Part shown: positions 2,290 to 17,439 of the stretch, in pieces
Position numbering within the stretch: position 1 is the stretch's first letter
How the letters are laid out: every line of letters begins with the position of its first letter
Origin: a virus
Taxonomy: Duplodnaviria; Caudoviricetes
Length of the DNA stretch: 24,220 nt
Direction: 5' to 3' (one strand)
IMG/VR virus record: IMGVR_UViG_3300020045_005060
Coordinates: 1-24,220 of that record
Notes under the pieces: generated by a model
Databases searched by the model: none
The model's input: only the letters and a program-made list of their open reading frames with translations
What the model was told of the DNA's origin: nothing
Program-made: the position numbers and the translations under genes

Positions 2290-3840
2290 ATGGCTTTACA
2301 AACAATACCGGGTCTAACTGGTCTTCAATATGCAAGGGTTTCATCTATGGACGCTCGTGCTGTTGGTAAATTAACTGATAGTAATCACTTGGAAAGTTTC
2401 CATAATGATGCCCCACAGGATTATGATAAAAAGATTATTTCTATCTATACTCAGACTTCATTAGTTGCTAATGATTTCTTGGCTATGATTAATAAATCTA
2501 CTCCATATCTGTTGGATGGTGTTTCTGATACATGGAAATGGCAGATTGAAAAACCTTACCAGTTTCCTAAGATTATACACATTCCAGCCACTACTACTTC
2601 TCAATCCAATATTGGTATTGATGGTAAAGTGTTTGAAGTTGTTTTAGATACTATTGTTTCTAAAAATGGTGTAATTTCTGTAGGACATCGTATGTATGGT
2701 CCTCAGTTTATTATTGTTTCTGACCCTACTCAGTATGGTAGAGGTTGGTTACATATATGTCAGTTACGTACAGCTAATCCACTTACTGATTTTGTTGATC
2801 CACAATTCCTTCAAGAAGGTATGGATGTAAAATTAATTGATCATGTATTGGGTGAGTTTGATCAGGATTTACAGGGTCTTCCTAAAATGGCTGATAAAAT
2901 CACCATGTTTGAAAGTTTAGGTTCCGGTTATGGTTTTGAACACAAAATCACTACTTGGGCTGATGATAAGATGCTGAAAGATTCTAAGGGTCAACCATTA
3001 GATATTATGGTTTATATGGATGCAAGACGTAATGGTCAGGCAGTCACTAAACAAAGTGTTAAATGGGAACCATTTGTAGAGTTTTGGATGCGTAAATCTA
3101 TGATGGAGATGAAGGTAGATCGTATGATCTGGAACAAACCGGGTGTCTCTCGTAGCAATGGTGCTAAACAAGAACTTCGTAAAACTTCTGCTGGTATTTA
3201 TTACAGGATGCGTAATTCTGGTAATTACTTAGGATATAATCGTGGTGAGTTGTCTGGTAACTTATTCCGTACAGCATTTGGTGATTTGTTCTACAGGCGT
3301 GTGGATGTTTCTCAACGTCATGTGAAAATGTACACCAATGAAGCTGGTATGGATGCATGGCAGCAGATGATTAAAGAAGATGCTTTTGAATCTGGACTTA
3401 CATTTAATGTTGGTGACAACGATAAGTTTGTTCAGGGATCTGGTCAGAATCTTGTTTATAACTTTGCATTCTCTGCAATGGTTACTAGGGAAACTGGTAA
3501 GATGGAAGTAATTCATCTGAAAGAATTGGATTTACCACAAACTAACTTAGAGTTTGGTCAGAATAAGAAATCTACACCTGTATTTATGGTGTTTGATATT
3601 TCTCCATCAGGAGATGGTAGCTTGCAGAACAACATTCGTGAAGTTCGTAGAGCTGGTACACCAAATATGCAATGGGGTTATATTGATGGTCGTAGATCTC
3701 ACTTAGGTGCTATGGCTTCTCAGGGCCACTCAGCTTCTTCTAAGTTTCCCGGATATGAAATCTTTATGGAAGATAGGAGTGATGTTTTCATCGAAGATAT
3801 GTCTCGTACTTTCTTAATAGAAGAAATTCCTTTTTACTAA
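2290..3840 (+). CDS. Major capsid protein (crAss-like, HK97 fold)
   Basis: 516 aa, strongly biased codon usage (CGT/GGT-rich) typical of high expression, crAss-like MCP features (LTDSNHL near the N-terminus, VKMYTNEAG, VIHLKELD), followed by a terminator-like hairpin. Confidence 0.85.
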   Translation: MALQTIPGLTGLQYARVSSMDARAVGKLTDSNHLESFHNDAPQDYDKKIISIYTQTSLVANDFLAMINKSTPYLLDGVSDTWKWQIEKPYQFPKIIHIPATTTSQSNIGIDGKVFEVVLDTIVSKNGVISVGHRMYGPQFIIVSDPTQYGRGWLHICQLRTANPLTDFVDPQFLQEGMDVKLIDHVLGEFDQDLQGLPKMADKITMFESLGSGYGFEHKITTWADDKMLKDSKGQPLDIMVYMDARRNGQAVTKQSVKWEPFVEFWMRKSMMEMKVDRMIWNKPGVSRSNGAKQELRKTSAGIYYRMRNSGNYLGYNRGELSGNLFRTAFGDLFYRRVDVSQRHVKMYTNEAGMDAWQQMIKEDAFESGLTFNVGDNDKFVQGSGQNLVYNFAFSAMVTRETGKMEVIHLKELDLPQTNLEFGQNKKSTPVFMVFDISPSGDGSLQNNIREVRRAGTPNMQWGYIDGRRSHLGAMASQGHSASSKFPGYEIFMEDRSDVFIEDMSRTFLIEEIPFY

Positions 3841-6895: not shown

Positions 6896-7393
6896 ATGGC
6901 ACTAGAACAAATTACATTAAATAAAATAAGTCAACTTCACCCTAAACTTAGGCAAGAAGTCACTACTTTATTAGAAAGGGCAGAATCCATTATTGATCCT
7001 GATTATAAAATAAGAGTTGTACAAGGACTTAGAACTATAGAGGAGCAAGATGCTCTTTATGCTCAAGGTCGTACTAAGCCCGGATCAATTGTAACTAAAG
7101 CCAAAGGGGGTAGCTCCTACCATAACTACGGATTAGCCATTGATCTTTGTTGGTTAATAAAGCAAGCTGATGGATCTTATAAGTATGAAGAAAAAAGATC
7201 TTGGATATTTGGCCCACAATATCAAAAAATTGTAAAAATATTTAAAGAGGCTGGATATACTTGGGGAGGTGATTTTAAACAAATTTCTGACAAACCACAT
7301 TTTGAAAAAAACTTTGATGTGAATTGGAAATCTTTATACAAAAAATATCAAAATAAAGATTTTATCCCTAATACTACTTATGTTAATATATGA
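6896..7393 (+). CDS. Endolysin, peptidase M15 (L-Ala-D-Glu endopeptidase-like)
   Basis: GLRTIEEQDALYAQGRT, SYHNYGLAID (SxHxxGxAxD zinc motif), WGGDF and DKPHFE motifs. Confidence 0.92.
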   Translation: MALEQITLNKISQLHPKLRQEVTTLLERAESIIDPDYKIRVVQGLRTIEEQDALYAQGRTKPGSIVTKAKGGSSYHNYGLAIDLCWLIKQADGSYKYEEKRSWIFGPQYQKIVKIFKEAGYTWGGDFKQISDKPHFEKNFDVNWKSLYKKYQNKDFIPNTTYVNI

Positions 7394-7893
7394 TCAGAAT
7401 TTGTGTAACTTGTAAAATAGGTAAAGAAGCTAATGAGGATAATTTTTATAAAGATAAAAATAGACCATTAGGTTTAATGTATAGATGTAAAGAATGTGAT
7501 AAAAAACGTATAGATAAAAGAATTTGGAAAGAAAGAGTCTTTACTGAAGAACAAAAAAATAGTAAAAAACTAGCTAATAAAAAATATGCTAGAACAAATA
7601 AAGGAAAATCTATTTCTATTCTTAAAGCTTATGAAAATCACGACAAAATACATAATAGAATAACAGATTTAAAATCTGAAGATATTTTAAATATTTTAAA
7701 CACTCCTTGTACTTATTGCGGATTTCCATCGACTGGATTTGATAGAATTAATAATTCTTTAGGACATACTAAAGAAAATGTTGTACCATGCTGTAAGGAA
7801 TGTAATGTAGCTCGAATGGATAATTTTTCTCATAAAGAAATGTTTATACTAGGTAAGACAATAAGAGAAGTTAAATTAAATAGAAATTTATAA
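7390..7893 (+). CDS. HNH-superfamily endonuclease (free-standing homing endonuclease-like)
   Basis: N-terminal CxxC...RCKEC zinc motif; C-terminal CTYCG...GFDRINNSLGHTKENVVPCCKECN. Very A-rich; overlaps both neighbours. Confidence 0.8.
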   Translation: MIRICVTCKIGKEANEDNFYKDKNRPLGLMYRCKECDKKRIDKRIWKERVFTEEQKNSKKLANKKYARTNKGKSISILKAYENHDKIHNRITDLKSEDILNILNTPCTYCGFPSTGFDRINNSLGHTKENVVPCCKECNVARMDNFSHKEMFILGKTIREVKLNRNL

Positions 7894-8817: not shown

Positions 8818-9867
8818 ATGAATTGTAGTAATTGTCCTCAATGTGATGATTTAGTGTCTGATAAATGTGTTCGTTACACAGGGCCTAATATAGAAGAATT
8901 GGGTATTTGTGAAGATATGTATTTATATGAAGTAGAGGCTATTATACTAGCTAAACTTCAAGAAAGCGCAGATACTTCTGTAATAAAATATAATACACTC
9001 ACTACTGCTTGTGCATTTATTACCACCTTATTAGTAGGAAAACCTTCTCAACCTTTTACTTTACAGCAATTTGCTGAAGTGGTATTTGATGGCTTTTGTA
9101 AACTTGATACTAAAATAAATAGTGTCACTCCTTCTTCATTCTCTTTTAATACAGGATGTTTAACAGGAGATGTTAGTACAAGGGATAAAATTATTCAAGC
9201 TCTTATAACAAAGTCCTGTTTAGATTCCACTAAAATAGATACGTTAGAAGATACCTATGTTAAAATAGAGGACTTATGCTCTCTTGTTACAGCTTGTATA
9301 GAAGATTCTACTGTAGTTAATACACAATTCTATAATAAGATGGTTCCATATGCGCCTGTTCCTTATATAGGCTCTATAGCAAATTTTGATAACACTGGAA
9401 AAGGACTAGTTTCTGCTAATTTTGATAAGGTGTATTTAATGAATGGACTTAATGGAACACAGGATTGGAGAGGAAGAAGTCCTATTGGAGCTATACAGAA
9501 TGTTCCCGGAGCTACATTGGATAGCACAGTTGATCCTAGTGTTTCTGGTAATGCTTCCTATAATTATAATGTGGGAAATAAGTATGGAACTTCCAGTGAG
9601 ATTTTAAATAGTTCTCAAATTCCATCACATTCTCACACTGTAAATGATCCCGGACATAAACATACATTCTCAACAAAAGGAGATAGGCTTTTAGATATTG
9701 CTTCTGGAGCTTATATAGTGGAAAGTAATCCAGATAGAACTGGGATATTTGATGCTAATATGGAATTAGCTCAAACTAACATAACTATAAATTCTGCTGG
9801 AGGATCATTATCTCACAATAACTTACATCCAACAATTGCTGTATTATATATAGTTTATATACCATGA
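8818..9867 (+). CDS. Cys-rich tail fibre/baseplate-like protein with a tail-collar-type C-terminus
   Basis: LMNGLNGTQDWRGR, QIPSHSHTVNDPGHKH and AGGSLSHNNLHP are typical of phage tail-collar/short-fibre domains; Cys-rich N-terminus. Confidence 0.75.
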   Translation: MNCSNCPQCDDLVSDKCVRYTGPNIEELGICEDMYLYEVEAIILAKLQESADTSVIKYNTLTTACAFITTLLVGKPSQPFTLQQFAEVVFDGFCKLDTKINSVTPSSFSFNTGCLTGDVSTRDKIIQALITKSCLDSTKIDTLEDTYVKIEDLCSLVTACIEDSTVVNTQFYNKMVPYAPVPYIGSIANFDNTGKGLVSANFDKVYLMNGLNGTQDWRGRSPIGAIQNVPGATLDSTVDPSVSGNASYNYNVGNKYGTSSEILNSSQIPSHSHTVNDPGHKHTFSTKGDRLLDIASGAYIVESNPDRTGIFDANMELAQTNITINSAGGSLSHNNLHPTIAVLYIVYIP

Positions 9868-10475
9868 GATATAAAACAGAAGAACAAAAAGAAAAACATA
9901 GAGAAGAGGCTAAAATTTGGAGAGAAAAAAATCCTGAAAAATATAAATTATCTTATAAGAAAAATTATGAAAACAATAGTGAAAATTGGACAAATTGGAA
10001 AATTAATAATAAAGAAAAAGTAGCTGAAGCTAATAAAAAATGGCGTTTAAAAAATAAAGAAAAAATTAGAGAATCTAATAAAAAATATAGATTAAAAAAT
10101 AAAGAAAAATATTTAAAAAGATGTGCAGAATTATCTAAAATAAGAAAAGAAGTAGATCCTGTATATAACCTTAAAATAAAAATTAGATCATCAATATCTG
10201 ATTCTTTTAGAAGAGGTACAAAAAAATTTAAAAAATTATCAAAAACAGAAGATATTTTAGGTTGCACGTTTGAGTTTTTTAAAGATTATATTTTAAAAAA
10301 ATGCCCTGAAAATATTTCTTTAAAAGACTTTAATCAATTTGGTTATCACTTAGACCACATAATACCAATAAGTGAGGCTAAGACTGAAGAAGATATTATA
10401 AAACTTAATCATTATACCAATTTTCAGCCTCTATGGTGGTTAGATAATCTGCAAAAATCAAATAAAATAATTTAA
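9864..10475 (+). CDS. HNH homing endonuclease-like protein
   Basis: N-terminal basic helical repeats (WREKNPEK, WRLKNKEK, YRLKNKEK) and C-terminal ILGC...YHLDHIIPIS...LNHYTNFQPLWWLDNLQKSNK. Extremely A-rich. Confidence 0.85.
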   Translation: MRYKTEEQKEKHREEAKIWREKNPEKYKLSYKKNYENNSENWTNWKINNKEKVAEANKKWRLKNKEKIRESNKKYRLKNKEKYLKRCAELSKIRKEVDPVYNLKIKIRSSISDSFRRGTKKFKKLSKTEDILGCTFEFFKDYILKKCPENISLKDFNQFGYHLDHIIPISEAKTEEDIIKLNHYTNFQPLWWLDNLQKSNKII

Positions 10476-10484
10476 ATTAAAAAT

Positions 10485-12506
10485 ATGCCTTGTTCTTCTT
10501 GTGGTAATACTTCTCCTTTAGTTTTTGATGTACAGAGTTTTTTAAACCCTGAATGTAATTCTTGTGGGGATGTACAATGCTACCCTGCTAAAAATGTTTG
10601 TTACACAGGCCCAAACTTAGTTTGTTCTGGTATATTAACCAATGACGATCTTGAAACCGCCTTCACTAAAATTGATGAACAAATATGTTCAGCAAGTGGG
10701 GATTATAGTACCTATCAAAAAAATTGTCTTCCTGCATGGGCAGGGAATGACTTAAATACAGAGGCTCTATTTGTTGAAGCTATAACAGGCTATGCTTGTG
10801 AAACAAGAGAAAATTTAGATGAATTTATACAAAGTACATTTCCTGACTATCAAGTAGTAGTGGATGAGAGATTTGATGATATTGAACTCCCTGCAATCAC
10901 TTGTGCATCAGCAGGAATAGTAAATACAGATACTTTATCAACAGTATACACAAAATATTGTACAAAATTTACACAAATAGATGATGCTTTAAATATTTCT
11001 GATGTAGACTTTGCTTCTTGCTTTACTGTAACAACTGCCCCTACCACTGTAAAAACTGGATTTGAAGAATTAATTGCTCAAATTTGTACTTTACAAGGAC
11101 TGATTGGGTCTGGTGGGGTTGTTCTTCCAACATTTAATAATGTAGGGACATGTTTGGGTGGAACCCTTACCACTACAGATTCTACAGAATCCACTATAAT
11201 TAAAATACGCACTAAATTATGTACTCTACCTACATGGGATAAAACAGGAGTGACATGGGGATGTGTTGGAGTCCCTACTCCAAATACTTTAGAAGCAGCC
11301 TTTCAGAATGTAATAACAAAAGTTAATTACATGCTTCCTAAAACTGTTACATTTGGATCAGGGTTTAGTGTAGTGCCTACAGATGTAAGCAATCCTTGTT
11401 TAGGGGTAACAGTAACACCCACAACAAGCGCAGATAGATTCGTAGCTTCTAATGGAGCTGATTCAAGTCCGGGAACATTAAAAGATAAATTACTTGGAAC
11501 AGGTATCACTATTGATGATGCTACCACTGCTGGAAAAATAACTCTCATATCTGATTATAAAGTGAAGGCAGATGTAAGCGATGTATCTCCTAATTTCTTA
11601 ATTAATAAATTAAATGGTAGTTCTGTTAGTGGAATCACTATAACCCCTACATATAACAGTCTTACAAAGAAAGTGGATTTAGTTCTTTCAATAGATCCAG
11701 ATGCTATCTGTTCTTTGTTATCAGGTTGTTCTACTGCTGTTCCATGTACAACTTATATAGTAACCCCAGCAGGAACTTCTTCTCTAAGCTACACAGATTG
11801 TAGTGGATCTATTGTTAGCATATCTATTTCAGGAGTTACAGAAATATGCGCTAAATTAAACACTGTATATGCCCCTAATGCTACAATAGTAAATGATGGG
11901 GCTTGTGCTACAGGATGTTATGCGCCTGTTACATTAACTTCCAGTGCTATAACTTCCTCTTCTTTTGTAGAAACATGGAGTGCCGTTACAGGAGCTACAG
12001 AATACCAATATAGACTTAATGGCGGATCTTGGATTAGCAATGCTTTAGCTTTAACCGTTACAGTATCTGCAAGTCCTTCTACCACTTACACTTTTGATGT
12101 AAGAGCTATTGTAGATGGTATTTCTTGTTCAGAGTTTACATCTAATGCTGTAACTACAGAAGATGCTATATCTACCCCTAATGTATATATCCAGAATAAC
12201 CCCGGATTTGGAATAACAATAAATGATGTAGACTTGAGTACATCAGTTCCATTCTTTGCTTTCTCTTCTGGTTCATTCCCTCTCGTATCAGGGGTAGTAA
12301 CAGGGGTACACACAGGATTCACAGGTATAATCAGACTTACAGTGGCTACAGGAGCTTCTACAGGAACAGCAAAACTTTATGTAGATAGTGTTTTAATCGA
12401 GTGTATTGACTTAACTGTTGGAACAGCAAATAACTTTACCACAAATACATATTTAAGTTCTGAAGAAATATCTGTAATCGTAGAAGCAGGAACTTGTGGA
12501 GTATAA
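10485..12506 (+). CDS. Cys/Thr-rich tail fibre or spike-like protein with a fibronectin type III-like domain
   Basis: 673 aa; N-terminus is paralogous to the 8818 protein (CYTGPNL vs CVRYTGPNI); FN3-like segment WSAVTGATEYQYRL...SPSTTYTFDVRA. Confidence 0.65.
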   Translation: MPCSSCGNTSPLVFDVQSFLNPECNSCGDVQCYPAKNVCYTGPNLVCSGILTNDDLETAFTKIDEQICSASGDYSTYQKNCLPAWAGNDLNTEALFVEAITGYACETRENLDEFIQSTFPDYQVVVDERFDDIELPAITCASAGIVNTDTLSTVYTKYCTKFTQIDDALNISDVDFASCFTVTTAPTTVKTGFEELIAQICTLQGLIGSGGVVLPTFNNVGTCLGGTLTTTDSTESTIIKIRTKLCTLPTWDKTGVTWGCVGVPTPNTLEAAFQNVITKVNYMLPKTVTFGSGFSVVPTDVSNPCLGVTVTPTTSADRFVASNGADSSPGTLKDKLLGTGITIDDATTAGKITLISDYKVKADVSDVSPNFLINKLNGSSVSGITITPTYNSLTKKVDLVLSIDPDAICSLLSGCSTAVPCTTYIVTPAGTSSLSYTDCSGSIVSISISGVTEICAKLNTVYAPNATIVNDGACATGCYAPVTLTSSAITSSSFVETWSAVTGATEYQYRLNGGSWISNALALTVTVSASPSTTYTFDVRAIVDGISCSEFTSNAVTTEDAISTPNVYIQNNPGFGITINDVDLSTSVPFFAFSSGSFPLVSGVVTGVHTGFTGIIRLTVATGASTGTAKLYVDSVLIECIDLTVGTANNFTTNTYLSSEEISVIVEAGTCGV

Positions 12507-12535
12507 CTAAAAAGATTATCCTATTTTTAAAATAA

Positions 12536-12566
12536 TTTGGAAATGTCAAATATATGTTTTATATTG
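12536..12566 (+). promoter_or_regulatory. Candidate Bacteroidota-type promoter P1
   Basis: TTTG (12536-12539), 20 nt, TATATTG (12560-12566); the -7 box is one base shorter than TAnnTTTG. Confidence 0.5.
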
Positions 12567-12608
12567 CACTCAGAAACTTCAATACAGGGGAAGAGTTCTA
12601 AAAATAAA

Positions 12609-12640
12609 TTTGGTGTTTTTAATTATATAACTTACCTTTG
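12609..12640 (+). promoter_or_regulatory. Bacteroidota housekeeping-sigma promoter P2
   Basis: TTTG (12609-12612), 20 nt, TACCTTTG (12633-12640): perfect match to the -33/-7 consensus. Confidence 0.75.
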
Positions 12641-12659
12641 AAATACGGTAGAAACAAAT

Positions 12660-12714
12660 AAAAACCTCAGAAGCAAACTCTTCCCCAAAGAATTAAAGCT
12701 TTCTGGGGTTTTTT
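12660..12714 (+). terminator. Terminator-like hairpin just downstream of P2
   Basis: AAAAACCTCAGAAGC (12660-12674) pairs with GCTTTCTGGGGTTTTTT (12698-12714), with one bulge and a G-U pair; large loop. Confidence 0.6.
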
Positions 12715-12739
12715 GCGTTATAAAATACACATAATTAGC

Positions 12740-12985
12740 AATCCAGTTTTTAGCCTCACACAATAAAAACTTATGATTAGAGAAACTCATACATTGGATA
12801 ACCAAGATTGTGTATGAGGTATAGGAAGCAGTAAAAATATCGCTCTGTCCATCCCGTGACAACGATTACCTACAAGTTTAACAAGCTCTGCTTTCCTCCA
12901 ATAAGGTGTTGGGATCTCTAGGTTCATTTGGTAATTAACGTACAGGAAATACTCTTGTAGGTATAAACGGGAGTGTATCTACTCC
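12740..12985 (+). ncRNA. Candidate structured non-coding RNA of unknown family
   Basis: Dense complementary segments in a gene-free region: 12745-52/12764-71, 12786-93/12811-18, 12823-31/12888-97, 12867-76/12954-63, 12852-57/12967-72, 12970-74/12981-85. Strand inferred from upstream promoters. Confidence 0.5.
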
Positions 12986-13028
12986 TTAACCAAAAATATT
13001 ACCCTATTTTCCAATTCATAATAATAAA

Positions 13029-13060
13029 TTTGATAATCTCAATTTATTTGCATACTTTTG
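13029..13060 (+). promoter_or_regulatory. Bacteroidota housekeeping-sigma promoter P3
   Basis: TTTG (13029-13032), 20 nt, TACTTTTG (13053-13060), 22 nt upstream of ATG 13083. Confidence 0.78.
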
Positions 13061-13082
13061 TCATAGCACCAAATTATAATTA

Positions 13083-14327
13083 ATGAAAGAAAAATTAAAA
13101 GAATTATTAAAGCAGAAAAAGTCAATTTCTTTCTATGCTGTAAAATTAGGGATAACAGAACAAGAAGTTAAAGAATTACTCTTAGAACTAAGAACAGAAA
13201 TTATAATAAAGCCTAGAAATATAGAGGAAATATTTCCTTGGCTTGCAGAACAAAAAACAGATCACAATACAGGAGATAAAGAATTTATAGTAAAATCTAA
13301 TAAACCTTTACAACCCAACGAGATTGAAGAGTTAGTAGGAGCTGACAATATATCTACATTTGTAGACCATTCTTGGCTTAAATCTCAAAGAGATGGTACT
13401 TGGACTTACTCAATTCACACTAAATGTAGAGTTAAAGATTTTTATACAGCAGAAGAATTAGATAGTAAATTAAAAGAAATTTTTAAAGATAATGTTCCAG
13501 TTTCTGCTCCAAATTTTACAAAAACTAAAAGTAATAAAGCTTTATTTATTTATATAGGGGATGATCATGCAGGACTTGTACTAGAAAACTCTCTTTATAA
13601 TAGAGAATATTCAGGCTCTACTTATGCTCTTAGGTTATTACAAATTGCAGAGGAAGTAAAAAATCTTGATACTTTCTTTGAAGAAATTTATGTGGTAAGA
13701 CTTGGAGATGAAATGGATGGTTATAATGCTAAAACAACACGTTATGACCACACTTTAGATTCAGCTTCTAACAAAGATCAATTTGATATTTACACTATAG
13801 CAAATAAACTATTCTATACAGAAATATTTGAATCAGGACTTGCTAATAAATACAATCTTATTTCTCTTTCAAACTCTAATCATACAGGATTAGGGTTTTC
13901 TTATATTGCAAATAAAGCTTTAGAGTTTTGGCTGGATGTTAAATATCCTTTTGTAAAAGTCTCTCAACAAGAAAAATTTATTGATGCATATGAATTTGGG
14001 AATCATGTAATAGGACTTGTGCATGGGAAGGATGAAAAATATATGAAATCTCCAATGCCTTTAAATCTTGATTATAAAACAGATTTATGGCTTATGGAAT
14101 ATTATAAACAATTTAATTTAGAAGGTAGATTCATCTCTACAATAAAGGCTGATATACATAAATATAATTTTAATCAGGGAAAATCAGGACGTTATGTAAA
14201 TGTTCCATCTATTTCTTCTGGATCTAATTGGATTGAACATAATTTTGGAGATAGTAAATCAGGAGCTTTATTAGAAATTTATACAGCAGATAAAGAAGCT
14301 GTTACACAAATACCAATTTGGTTTTAA
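13083..14327 (+). CDS. Calcineurin-like metallophosphoesterase with an N-terminal HTH-like segment
   Basis: Motifs in the correct order: GDDHAG (DxH), LGDEMDG (GDxxD), NSNH (GNH variant), VHGK, ADIH (GHxH variant). N-terminal SISFYAVKLGITEQEVK looks like a helix-turn-helix. Confidence 0.78.
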   Translation: MKEKLKELLKQKKSISFYAVKLGITEQEVKELLLELRTEIIIKPRNIEEIFPWLAEQKTDHNTGDKEFIVKSNKPLQPNEIEELVGADNISTFVDHSWLKSQRDGTWTYSIHTKCRVKDFYTAEELDSKLKEIFKDNVPVSAPNFTKTKSNKALFIYIGDDHAGLVLENSLYNREYSGSTYALRLLQIAEEVKNLDTFFEEIYVVRLGDEMDGYNAKTTRYDHTLDSASNKDQFDIYTIANKLFYTEIFESGLANKYNLISLSNSNHTGLGFSYIANKALEFWLDVKYPFVKVSQQEKFIDAYEFGNHVIGLVHGKDEKYMKSPMPLNLDYKTDLWLMEYYKQFNLEGRFISTIKADIHKYNFNQGKSGRYVNVPSISSGSNWIEHNFGDSKSGALLEIYTADKEAVTQIPIWF

Positions 14328-15739: not shown

Positions 15740-16603
15740 ATGTCTCCATATTACCAATATTCCTACACTTCTGTAGAACCTATTATAGCTCTTGTTTCTG
15801 AAGAGCTAAAGTCATATATAGATACAAATGCAATTGATTCATCTATATGGAGTATTTATGTCTCAAAGTGTCTAAGAAAGCTTGGTAAAGGTATGTTACA
15901 AATACAACCTTTAATATTAGAAATATGTGACTTTCAAGCTAGACTTCCTGACAACTTTCATTCTGTAAGAGAAGCTTGGCTTTGTACAAATGAAACACAT
16001 GCATATAAACTTCCCGGAGCAGACTATCAAGAAGTGACAATGCAATCAACTTCTACTCTATTGGATAGTAATGTTTCTTATTGTACCCCCTGTGCAACTT
16101 GCTCCACTCCTGATGTAATTAAGGCTGTATACAAAACTACTCATCAAGCATTTGCATATTACACAAAACAATATCTTCTTAAGCCCGGAAATATAAATAC
16201 AAAAGAACTTTGTGCTTCTAATTGTAATAATCTCTCTTCTCAAGCTACAGATACCTTTGACATAATTGGGAATAAATTTGTAACAAACTTTACAGAAGGT
16301 ACAGTATATCTCCTTTACTATTCTACAGAATTAGATGAATCAGGCTATCAATTAATTCCTGATAATTTTCGTATTCAGGAATACATAGAAGCCTTTATTA
16401 AACAAAAAGTATTTGAACAACTCTCTAATCAAGTGGTGGATGAAACCTATAATCAAATACAACAAAAAGCTCAATACTACAAACAAGTAGCAGATGAAGC
16501 TTTCATTATGGCCGACATAGAAAGTAAGAAATCTACTGTTCATAAAAAAATAGAAAAAATTAAAGCGGAAAAACATAGGTTTGATAAATATAAAATTAGA
16601 TGA
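15740..16603 (+). CDS. Tail tubular/ring protein (P22 gp4-like family in crAss-like phages)
   Basis: 287 aa; FQARLPDNF and FVTNFTEGTVYLLYYSTELDESGYQLIPD motifs; lies between the IHF-like and stabilisation genes. Confidence 0.65.
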   Translation: MSPYYQYSYTSVEPIIALVSEELKSYIDTNAIDSSIWSIYVSKCLRKLGKGMLQIQPLILEICDFQARLPDNFHSVREAWLCTNETHAYKLPGADYQEVTMQSTSTLLDSNVSYCTPCATCSTPDVIKAVYKTTHQAFAYYTKQYLLKPGNINTKELCASNCNNLSSQATDTFDIIGNKFVTNFTEGTVYLLYYSTELDESGYQLIPDNFRIQEYIEAFIKQKVFEQLSNQVVDETYNQIQQKAQYYKQVADEAFIMADIESKKSTVHKKIEKIKAEKHRFDKYKIR

Positions 16604-17439
16604 GTATTAAATCTGGAATTTATAAAATAATTAATAGCCTTAATAATAAGGAATATATAGGGAGTGCTGTTGATTTAGAAAGAAGGCATTACTATCATTT
16701 ATTACATTTACGTAGAAATAAACATCATTCTAATAAGTTGCAACGAGCTTATAATAAATATGGAAAAGAAAATTTTAAATTTGAAGTAATAGAAGAAGTA
16801 TTTTTTAATTCAAGTTGTACAACCTCTTACAAAACTGAATATTTACAATGTTTAGAACAATTTTATTTAGATAAATTTTTACCATATAAAAATGGATATA
16901 ATATTTCTAAAATGTCAGATTGTCCAAATTCTAAAAAATCTAAAGAAACTATAAAGAAAACTTTAGAAACAAAAAGAAAAAATGGATATATAGTTTCTCA
17001 AGAAACTAAAGATAATATTTCTAAAGCGTTAAAAAATAGTATCAAATATAAAGCAGCTCAAAAAAGAATGGCAGCTAATAGAGTGTTAAAAGTTTATCAA
17101 TATGATTTAGACGGAAATTTTATAAAAGAATTTAAATCAAAAGTTGAAGCTAGTATAGAATTAAAAATAAGTTTACGTGGTTTACAAGAAGTAGTACAAC
17201 ATAATAACCATACTTTAGGAGGATTTATTTTTAAAAATTTTAAAGAAGATAAAATTGAACCTTTTATTAGAACTAATTATATAAAAATTAATGTTTTTGA
17301 TAAAAATAAATCTTTTTTAAAAACATTTGATAGTATTTCACAGTGTTCAAAAGATTTAAAAATTAATGCTTTATCAATCTCTAGGTATGCTAAAATTAAA
17401 AAAATTTATAAGGATATATTTTGGTTTGAATTTGTATAA
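16600..17439 (+). CDS. GIY-YIG homing endonuclease with NUMOD-type DNA-binding repeats
   Basis: SGIYKIIN...EYIGSA, R...H, LEQFY, GYN; C-terminal VYQYDLDGNFIKEFKS and a second NUMOD1-like repeat. Confidence 0.92.
   Translation: MSIKSGIYKIINSLNNKEYIGSAVDLERRHYYHLLHLRRNKHHSNKLQRAYNKYGKENFKFEVIEEVFFNSSCTTSYKTEYLQCLEQFYLDKFLPYKNGYNISKMSDCPNSKKSKETIKKTLETKRKNGYIVSQETKDNISKALKNSIKYKAAQKRMAANRVLKVYQYDLDGNFIKEFKSKVEASIELKISLRGLQEVVQHNNHTLGGFIFKNFKEDKIEPFIRTNYIKINVFDKNKSFLKTFDSISQCSKDLKINALSISRYAKIKKIYKDIFWFEFV

Follow-up and report, generated by a model that had tools for sequence, protein, structure and literature searches.

A pseudoknotted RNA element in crAss-like phages that apparently belongs to an uncatalogued RNA class

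Introduction

Does a gap between the structural genes of a crAss-like phage encode an RNA and, if so, of what kind? The question was raised by an earlier note on the window analyzed here (the whole of a 24.2-kb virus record, 21% complete), which had described a promoter-driven, pseudoknotted element on the + strand. Large and highly knotted RNAs are rare in bacteria and phages, and those whose functions have been solved are mostly ribozymes or parts of the core machinery. ROOL and GOLLD have recently turned out to be RNA-only cages of unknown purpose (PMC12286853).

Results and Discussion

Genomic setting

Pfam matches identify a Crassvirus major capsid protein and two crAss tail ring proteins among the products of the window, which thus represents the structural block of a crAss-like phage, a group whose hosts are Bacteroidetes (PMC10136315). 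The element lies in the largest gap between + strand ORFs of the window, 12507-13082. This had been taken for the only large gene-free stretch; it is indeed the largest on the + strand, but on the minus strand a 76-codon ORF (12632-12862) runs across part of it. No ORF position is conserved among the eight homologues described below. The upstream 673-aa ORF matched nothing in Pfam or PHROG, and its likely tail role rests on the PHROG tail matches of the preceding gene. The downstream 414-aa protein gave tblastn matches to calcineurin-like phosphoesterase genes of Cellulophaga phages.

Short contigs near-identical to the window were found in wastewater and freshwater runs. One of the eight matching runs, all of which matched as contigs, is an RNA run; it covers 12970-13179 and not the element. 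Run X7 had no match. Three homing-endonuclease-like genes are inserted in the structural block, at 7390-7893, 9864-10475 and 16600-17439; two of these inserts are endonuclease VII-like and one is of the GIY-YIG type with NUMOD1.

Table 1. Features of the locus, in coordinates of the window
Feature	Position	Strand	Basis or remark
Upstream gene, 673 aa, likely tail or tail-fibre protein	10485..12506	+	ORF; context only
Promoter-like box Pa (-33 and -7 elements, 20-nt spacer)	12536..12567	+	sequence, homologues
Leader arm A	12587..12597	+	inverted repeat, 11 bp, 100% complement of arm A'
Promoter-like box Pb, between arms, canonical, 20-nt spacer	12609..12640	+	sequence
Terminator-like hairpin with U-run; arm A' (12676-86) in loop	12660..12713	+	fold of 3' leader half, z -2.41
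Candidate 5' end/P3 loop pairing	12741..12799 (12741-47/12793-99)	+	4-10 bp possible in 8/8
Structured RNA element, family short form	12743..12980	+	8-member alignment A8; covariation counts
P1 hairpin	12745..12771 (12745-52/12764-71)	+	83.9% of cells paired; 2 pairs changed on both sides
P2, junction-closing helix	12773..12927 (12773-76/12924-27; 12777-83/12915-21)	+	2-nt bulge
P3 hairpin	12786..12818	+	helix of 7-9 bp in 8/8 members, sequences differing
Candidate PK5, linker with 3' end	12817..12980 (12817-23/12974-80)	+	85.7% paired
P4	12823..12897	+	helix of 7-10 bp in 8/8 members; encloses A-rich linker, P5 and 5' strand of PK2
P5, conserved 4x2 internal loop, apical loop forms PK1	12839..12866	+	P5a 100%, P5b 95.8% paired
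PK1, P5 loop with 3' tail	12852..12972 (12852-57/12967-72)	+	80.4% paired; 3/6 pairs changed on both sides
PK2, 10 bp	12867..12963 (12867-76/12954-63)	+	98.4% paired
P6, truncated in window	12897..12913	+	96.9% paired; extended in long forms, where its loop forms PK3
Canonical promoter-like box, separate, for downstream gene	13029..13060	+	sequence; consensus from PMC7366714
Downstream gene, 414 aa, phosphoesterase or exonuclease-like	13083..14327	+	PHROG 284 and 704 exonuclease matches; context only

Homologues of the element

Seven further copies were found in environmental crAss-like phages, so that the family has eight members of 238-350 nt that are 43-75% identical. A profile of the downstream protein led to 44 loci, three of which carry the element (L123, L132 and L145), and a capsid profile led to 80 loci, one with the element (L474); pattern scans added L209, L252 and L358. 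The first pattern scan yielded no homologue among 120 loci. Later scans of viral sequences gave two new members among 91 loci and one among 119, and two further scans gave none among 82 and 68 loci. In blastn searches against GenBank phages, the window matched with its promoter region only and L209 had no match. None of 15 pattern matches in bacterial genomes was a homologue, and the core model found no element in 151 genomes sampled from the phylum of G051 or in three others. These covariance searches used a core model of 97 positions, the full-length model being too long to calibrate, and may miss divergent members. On the L123 contig, which is probably a mis-join, two different phosphoesterase-like genes are oppositely oriented and both operons are broken.

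Evidence for the fold

In the window alone, there are three Watson-Crick helices of at least 8 bp, compared with a mean of 0.44 in shuffles (2 of 300 reached as many); one helix reaches at least 10 bp (7/300 shuffles) and four reach at least 7 bp (25/300). The minimum free energy gave a z-score of -1.86 on the + strand (6/200 shuffles) and -0.03 on the - strand, so by itself the window is only moderately above chance. Two homologues gave z-scores of -2.50 and -1.59.

Covariation was also counted in the eight-member alignment (A8). It comprised 51 pairs in eight helices, and 90.7% of the 396 cells pair, compared with 39-47% in slid controls. Changes on both sides were seen in 25 of the 51 pairs, both crossing helices included, and none of 500 shuffles reached any of five measures, where the pair structure was drawn from the same eight sequences and the shuffle ignores kinship. 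P3, P4 and PK3 stand outside the count, being misaligned by MAFFT; they rest on per-member helix lists from a region-limited search that is biased to find something. In addition, compared with the window, P5b, PK1 and PK2 have undergone compensatory changes in two contigs of run X6, which probably represent one strain. The fold is real; the homologues decide this, and the single-sequence statistics are modest. The earlier claim of two crossing helices in a + strand element is borne out by these compensatory changes in both. An invariant U-G pair, many G-U pairs on the + strand and the strand asymmetry of the z-score speak for an RNA rather than a DNA element.

Architecture of the element

All helix arms listed in the earlier note were found where it had placed them, although one base is bulged out of the stem 12823-31/12888-97, and one pair in 12898-12912 is G-U. 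The closing helix P2 and the upstream leader had been missed. In the overall fold, P2 closes a junction of P3, P4/P5 and P6, which is crossed by PK1 and PK2, with PK3 added in the long forms; 3' of P2, a variable hairpin precedes the 3' strands of PK2 and PK1, in this order. In A8, P2 is 90.9% paired, with both-side changes in 9 of 11 pairs and one invariant U-G pair, and both-side changes were seen in 5 of 7 pairs in P5. Among the eight counted pairs of PK2, six are invariant and two changed on both sides, and PK1 was recovered at 4-9 bp in all eight members by the region-limited helix search. The 38 invariant positions of the alignment cluster in PK2, the P5 internal loop and the A-rich linkers.

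PK3 joins the linker after PK2 with the extended P6 loop. The helix search found it at 7-13 bp in 5/5 long forms with differing sequences, and in two of these it was also recovered by a second pairing (inverted-repeat) search; the region-limited search gave no PK3-like helix in the three short forms, the window among them. The P3 loop is a candidate partner of the 5' end of the element, a pairing whose core pairs are invariant and without covariation support in the eight members. In candidate PK5, five pairs vary on one side and two on both, and the energies are weak. These two weaker pairings, judged from the sequences, would tuck in both ends of the element. In the long forms, the P3 loop may also pair with the internal loop of P6, which is suggested by eye and was only partly recovered in the helix search.

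The 3' hairpin has an energy of -7.9 kcal/mol in the window and of -3.4 or weaker in the other seven members; it is thus confined to the lineage of the window, and the 3' switch that the earlier note had drawn from it is not supported. No terminator-like end follows the element, and a conserved terminator is lacking.

Distribution and gene neighbours

We ran the core model on 50 whole records, consisting of 36 of the 80 capsid-selected records, 11 of the 13 phosphoesterase-selected records and three that were found by pattern. There were five true matches, all known already and with one copy each. A weak match (E 0.029) in the same search is not an element. The element occurs in 1 of the 36 capsid-selected records, and among records at least 90% complete it is present in two of eight and absent from the other six. 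Of the 41 capsid-selected loci, 39 have a slot of 87-197 nt before the phosphoesterase-like gene; the other two are one with 440 nt, which holds an ORF, and the carrier with 581 nt. The element is missing from most relatives whose capsids are 65-75% identical. In a capsid tree of 15 rows (one row a 307-column fragment, and three records without a capsid gene left out), carriers interleave with non-carriers, and one carrier lies inside a well-supported clade of eight non-carriers. These results show that the element belongs to a patchy, single-copy accessory cassette.

This distribution bears on a proposal of the earlier note, that of a packaging or structural RNA, of which the phi29 pRNA is an example. 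The location in a structural gene block would suit such a role, and the loop-to-tail pairings could be intermolecular. However, the single occurrence among the 36 capsid-selected records, the absence from most nearly complete ones and the many relatives without the element indicate that it is not needed for assembly in this group. An essential role of this kind is unlikely, and we regard the packaging explanation as very improbable.

The element is intergenic in 8/8 members, and the genes 3' of it vary: phosphoesterase-like genes of two families, a gene for a class I tRNA synthetase, a short ORF and an ORF of 99 aa were found there. By eye, a promoter-like box lies between the element and the next gene in 6/8. 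In two of the eight copies a start codon lies 15-25 nt after the end of the element, and two copies stand at or near the end of tRNA arrays. The synthetase (L132:1608-2837), directly after the element, is a leucyl-like class I enzyme of the phage.

Could the element then be a cis-acting leader, such as a riboswitch, an antiterminator or a translational element, that controls the downstream gene? It stands directly before the tRNA synthetase gene in L132 and before the 99-aa ORF in L252 with no promoter between, and the window has the alternative 3' hairpin. Against this, that hairpin is found in one of eight members, a conserved terminator is lacking, and the same downstream genes occur without the element in most relatives. 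The traits of a riboswitch or attenuator are also absent, as the eight members have neither a constant class of downstream gene nor a conserved expression platform. Because the downstream genes differ and have their own promoter-like box in most members, the element is not bound in cis to one gene, and we consider control in cis quite unlikely.

The leader upstream of the element

The earlier note had called the element promoter-driven. Promoter-like boxes are indeed present, but 100-200 nt and a terminator-like hairpin separate them from the element, whose expression would thus require read-through. The Bacteroidetes promoter consensus is TAnnTTTG and TTTG (PMC7366714). The -7 box of Pa is off this consensus in the window and canonical in four homologous leaders, and the stretch of Pb has weak blastn matches in unannotated DNA of crAss phage cr116_1. 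A simple terminator scan missed the leader hairpin because its loop is long, and the sigma-70 and terminator scans of the window were uninformative. The same leader precedes 7 of the 8 copies, in the order of promoter box, arm A, second box, arm A', terminator-like hairpin, 15-35 nt and P1; the exception is L145, where the element directly follows a tRNA and has no such leader. The first box matches the Bacteroidetes consensus, and the second, judged by eye, is canonical or near so in four leaders and degenerate in three. Late crAss genes are thought to be transcribed by the host polymerase (PMC10136315), which fits the Bacteroidetes-type boxes. An automated scan detected the leader in five of six carrier records, with a single occurrence in each, immediately 5' of the element; it missed carrier G050, whose leader is visible by eye, and gave three unrelated matches in three non-carriers. 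The 6S-Flavo model (RF01685), whose control was weak, matched none of the leaders in five records.

The arms of the leader are different in every member. In contigs of X4 and X6, which are 97-99% identical to the window, both arms are swapped for an unrelated 15-bp complementary pair (window 12577-12703). Such wholesale replacement between near-identical strains suggests, from sequence comparison, that the arms may be a specificity determinant.

When long transcripts were folded, the terminator was broken in the window and L123 and kept in L474, L209, L252 and L132, that is, in four of the five homologous leaders folded. Universal antitermination by the leader was therefore rejected. Given that the terminator is kept in these four, the leader may itself be a small RNA gene; the kept terminator, together with the lack of a terminator-like end after the element, also weighs against the route of read-through. 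As an antisense to the element, the leader was compared with shuffles, which did as well in 0/30 cases for L252, 1/30 for L132 and 3/30, a marginal result, for L358; the other four of the seven leaders were not above the shuffles. In L132 and in the record of L252 (L453:2814-2840 with 3042-3114), the element contains interior sequence, at or close to the strands of PK3, that is complementary to the 3' half of its leader. No such complementarity was seen in the window.

Comparison with known RNA families

The earlier note had assigned the element to no known family, and this held: Rfam scans of the window and its homologues gave chance matches only, and at the gathering score the two near-complete carriers contained only tRNAs. 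ARAGORN reported nothing in the window, and a tmRNA or tRNA reading would also lack a conserved tag ORF. RNase P type A (RF00010) was absent from five records, while its control matched in 11 of 14 genomes.

Like the element, ROOL (RF03087) is phage-borne, has many pseudoknots, is often near tRNA islands and has no known protein partner (PMC12286853). It is, however, about 580-660 nt long with stems P1-P19, compared with 238-350 nt and seven stems plus pseudoknots in the element; the helix order also differs, and no likeness to the env-120 sequence is visible by eye. The ROOL model gave no match at E up to 10 in five records, and its control gave none either. GOLLD (RF02032) shares the environmental phages, the tRNA-array context and the long-range kissing helices, but the element is one third its length and has another order of partners, with a short, superficial likeness by eye to env-38; the conserved 3' domain of GOLLD was found in none of five records at E up to 10. 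Both families often adjoin tRNA arrays (PMC12286853). Among the ROOL- and GOLLD-like traits, the element is phage-borne and has multiple pseudoknots, and a tRNA-array context is present in 2/8 members only.

The raiA motif RNA is of a similar size class, with two pseudoknots and a compact RNA-only fold, and is chromosomal in Gram-positive bacteria. In contrast, the element is phage-borne, and it has neither an Rfam match nor any likeness in sequence to this RNA by eye.

These comparisons also bear on whether the element is a new class of ribozyme, in which the nested pseudoknots would form a catalytic core that cleaves or processes a read-through transcript, for example to free tRNA arrays or the downstream mRNA. 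The size, the several crossing helices and the clustering of the 38 invariant positions would agree with this, as would the position after terminators and tRNA arrays. However, no Rfam ribozyme was matched, and in particular no model of the small self-cleaving ribozymes (HDV-like, twister, pistol, hatchet or hammerhead) matched the window or its homologues. In size the element is like a group I intron (RF00028), and it likewise has a closing helix around a P4-P5-P6-like arm, after which come a hairpin and a crossing helix. In the element, however, this crossing helix has its 5' strand inside P4 and not after P6, and no gene is interrupted. The RF00028 model left the element unmatched while it found a real intron in carrier G048, which served as a positive control. 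The helix order of the element is unlike that of group I, HDV-like and RNase P folds. On balance, a new ribozyme appears unlikely. The intron of G048 (G048:C1:97616-97863, - strand) is above the Rfam cut-off and is absent from the gathering-score scan.

Alternatively, the element may be a selfish or orphan mobile RNA, either derived from an intron or a scaffold of the OMEGA, retron or DRT type whose enzyme acts in trans or has been lost. Its patchy, cassette-like presence and the wholesale replacement of leader arms between near-identical strains are in line with this, as is the similar leader before another structured stretch and an HNH-like ORF in L131. HEARO, an OMEGA RNA (RF02033), resembles the element in its size, its multi-stem pseudoknotted scaffold and its variable 5' side. 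However, the HEARO model gave no match, and no IscB, IsrB or TnpB gene lies beside any of the eight copies. With regard to retrons and DRT systems, no reverse transcriptase was found among the neighbours of the element or the carrier-specific genes; nor do the two near-complete carriers have in common any reverse transcriptase, nuclease or other partner that is missing from three non-carriers. The genes that these two carriers share to the exclusion of the three non-carriers are a family A DNA polymerase, a dUTPase-like ORF and small ORFs. Furthermore, there is one copy per record, and the ongoing compensatory evolution speaks against a decaying relic. We thus consider a mobile RNA improbable, to much the same degree as control in cis.

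We found no description of the element in a literature search limited to parts of the sources, with subscription papers and bioRxiv supplements outside its scope. A survey of candidate viral RNAs from IMG/VR reports motifs of 29-151 nt (PMC10690425), and a fragment of the element may be listed there. Rfam can miss divergent RNAs, so remote kinship with known RNAs may exist. Taken as a whole, the element is apparently an uncatalogued RNA class of a known broad kind.

A proposed role of the element

The element is probably a stand-alone structured RNA. As to its role, we favor, at slightly better than even odds (roughly 0.55), that it is a stand-alone RNA gene of an accessory cassette, whose compact product would resist nucleases and act in trans on host factors, as a decoy or scaffold. 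In this proposal, host RNA polymerase would start at the tandem Bacteroidetes-type promoters, and most transcripts would stop at the leader terminator to give a short hairpin RNA. A fraction would read through and yield the element RNA, which may resist decay with both ends tucked into pairings. This RNA might then bind or sequester host proteins, for example defence sensors or nucleases, which is the weakest step. It may also form an RNA-only oligomer in which some of the kissing helices arise between molecules. In GOLLD and ROOL, some contacts predicted from covariation turned out to be intermolecular (PMC12286853).

A fuller version is possible but doubtful: a two-part cassette in which the hairpin leader with its fast-swapping arms would gate a small knotted RNA that, either self-assembling via kissing helices or as a new ribozyme, would disarm Bacteroidota defence. 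If this were true, the element would be the smallest ornate-type RNA known, with natural short and long forms, and its leader would be common to at least one other uncatalogued RNA class.

Returning to the proposed trans-acting RNA, the family is a third to half the size of ROOL and GOLLD. Its natural minimal form (about 240 nt in the window) and a long form with one more pseudoknot offer a tractable test of what such RNAs do.

Other structured RNAs in relatives

The element also points to an unexplored site for RNA genes beside the crAss-like tail genes, in which a second uncatalogued structured RNA with the same leader is found. This RNA-like family, here called type B, is about 270-390 nt long and occupies the same slot before the phosphoesterase gene at L139:1868-2150, L141:3596-3880, L142, L143, L128:3455-3720 and L136:1600-1990. 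In L136, L139 and L141-143 it is preceded by a leader of the same kind. Both-side changes occur in 9 of the 45 consensus pairs in three sequences, and the four scanned had no Rfam match. Type B sequences were considered as members of the element family and rejected, the core model being negative.

A third structured stretch was seen by eye at L131:2690-3035, where the same promoter-arm-arm-terminator leader is followed by about 170 nt with its own terminator and then by the HNH-like ORF, which has no Pfam match. By eye, the tRNA-flanked stretch L128:2895-3150 resembles an RNase P RNA in its motifs; the RF00010 model gave no match there. Short Ser/Leu-rich leader ORFs with terminator hairpins were seen by eye directly before tRNA genes at L128 (about 2600-2740), L145:2577-2705 and L156 (about 1130-1260); these resemble ribosome-dependent attenuators, with a weak Phe_leader match. 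Finally, ARAGORN reported a tmRNA in a non-carrier crAss-like genome (G032, L591-L596).
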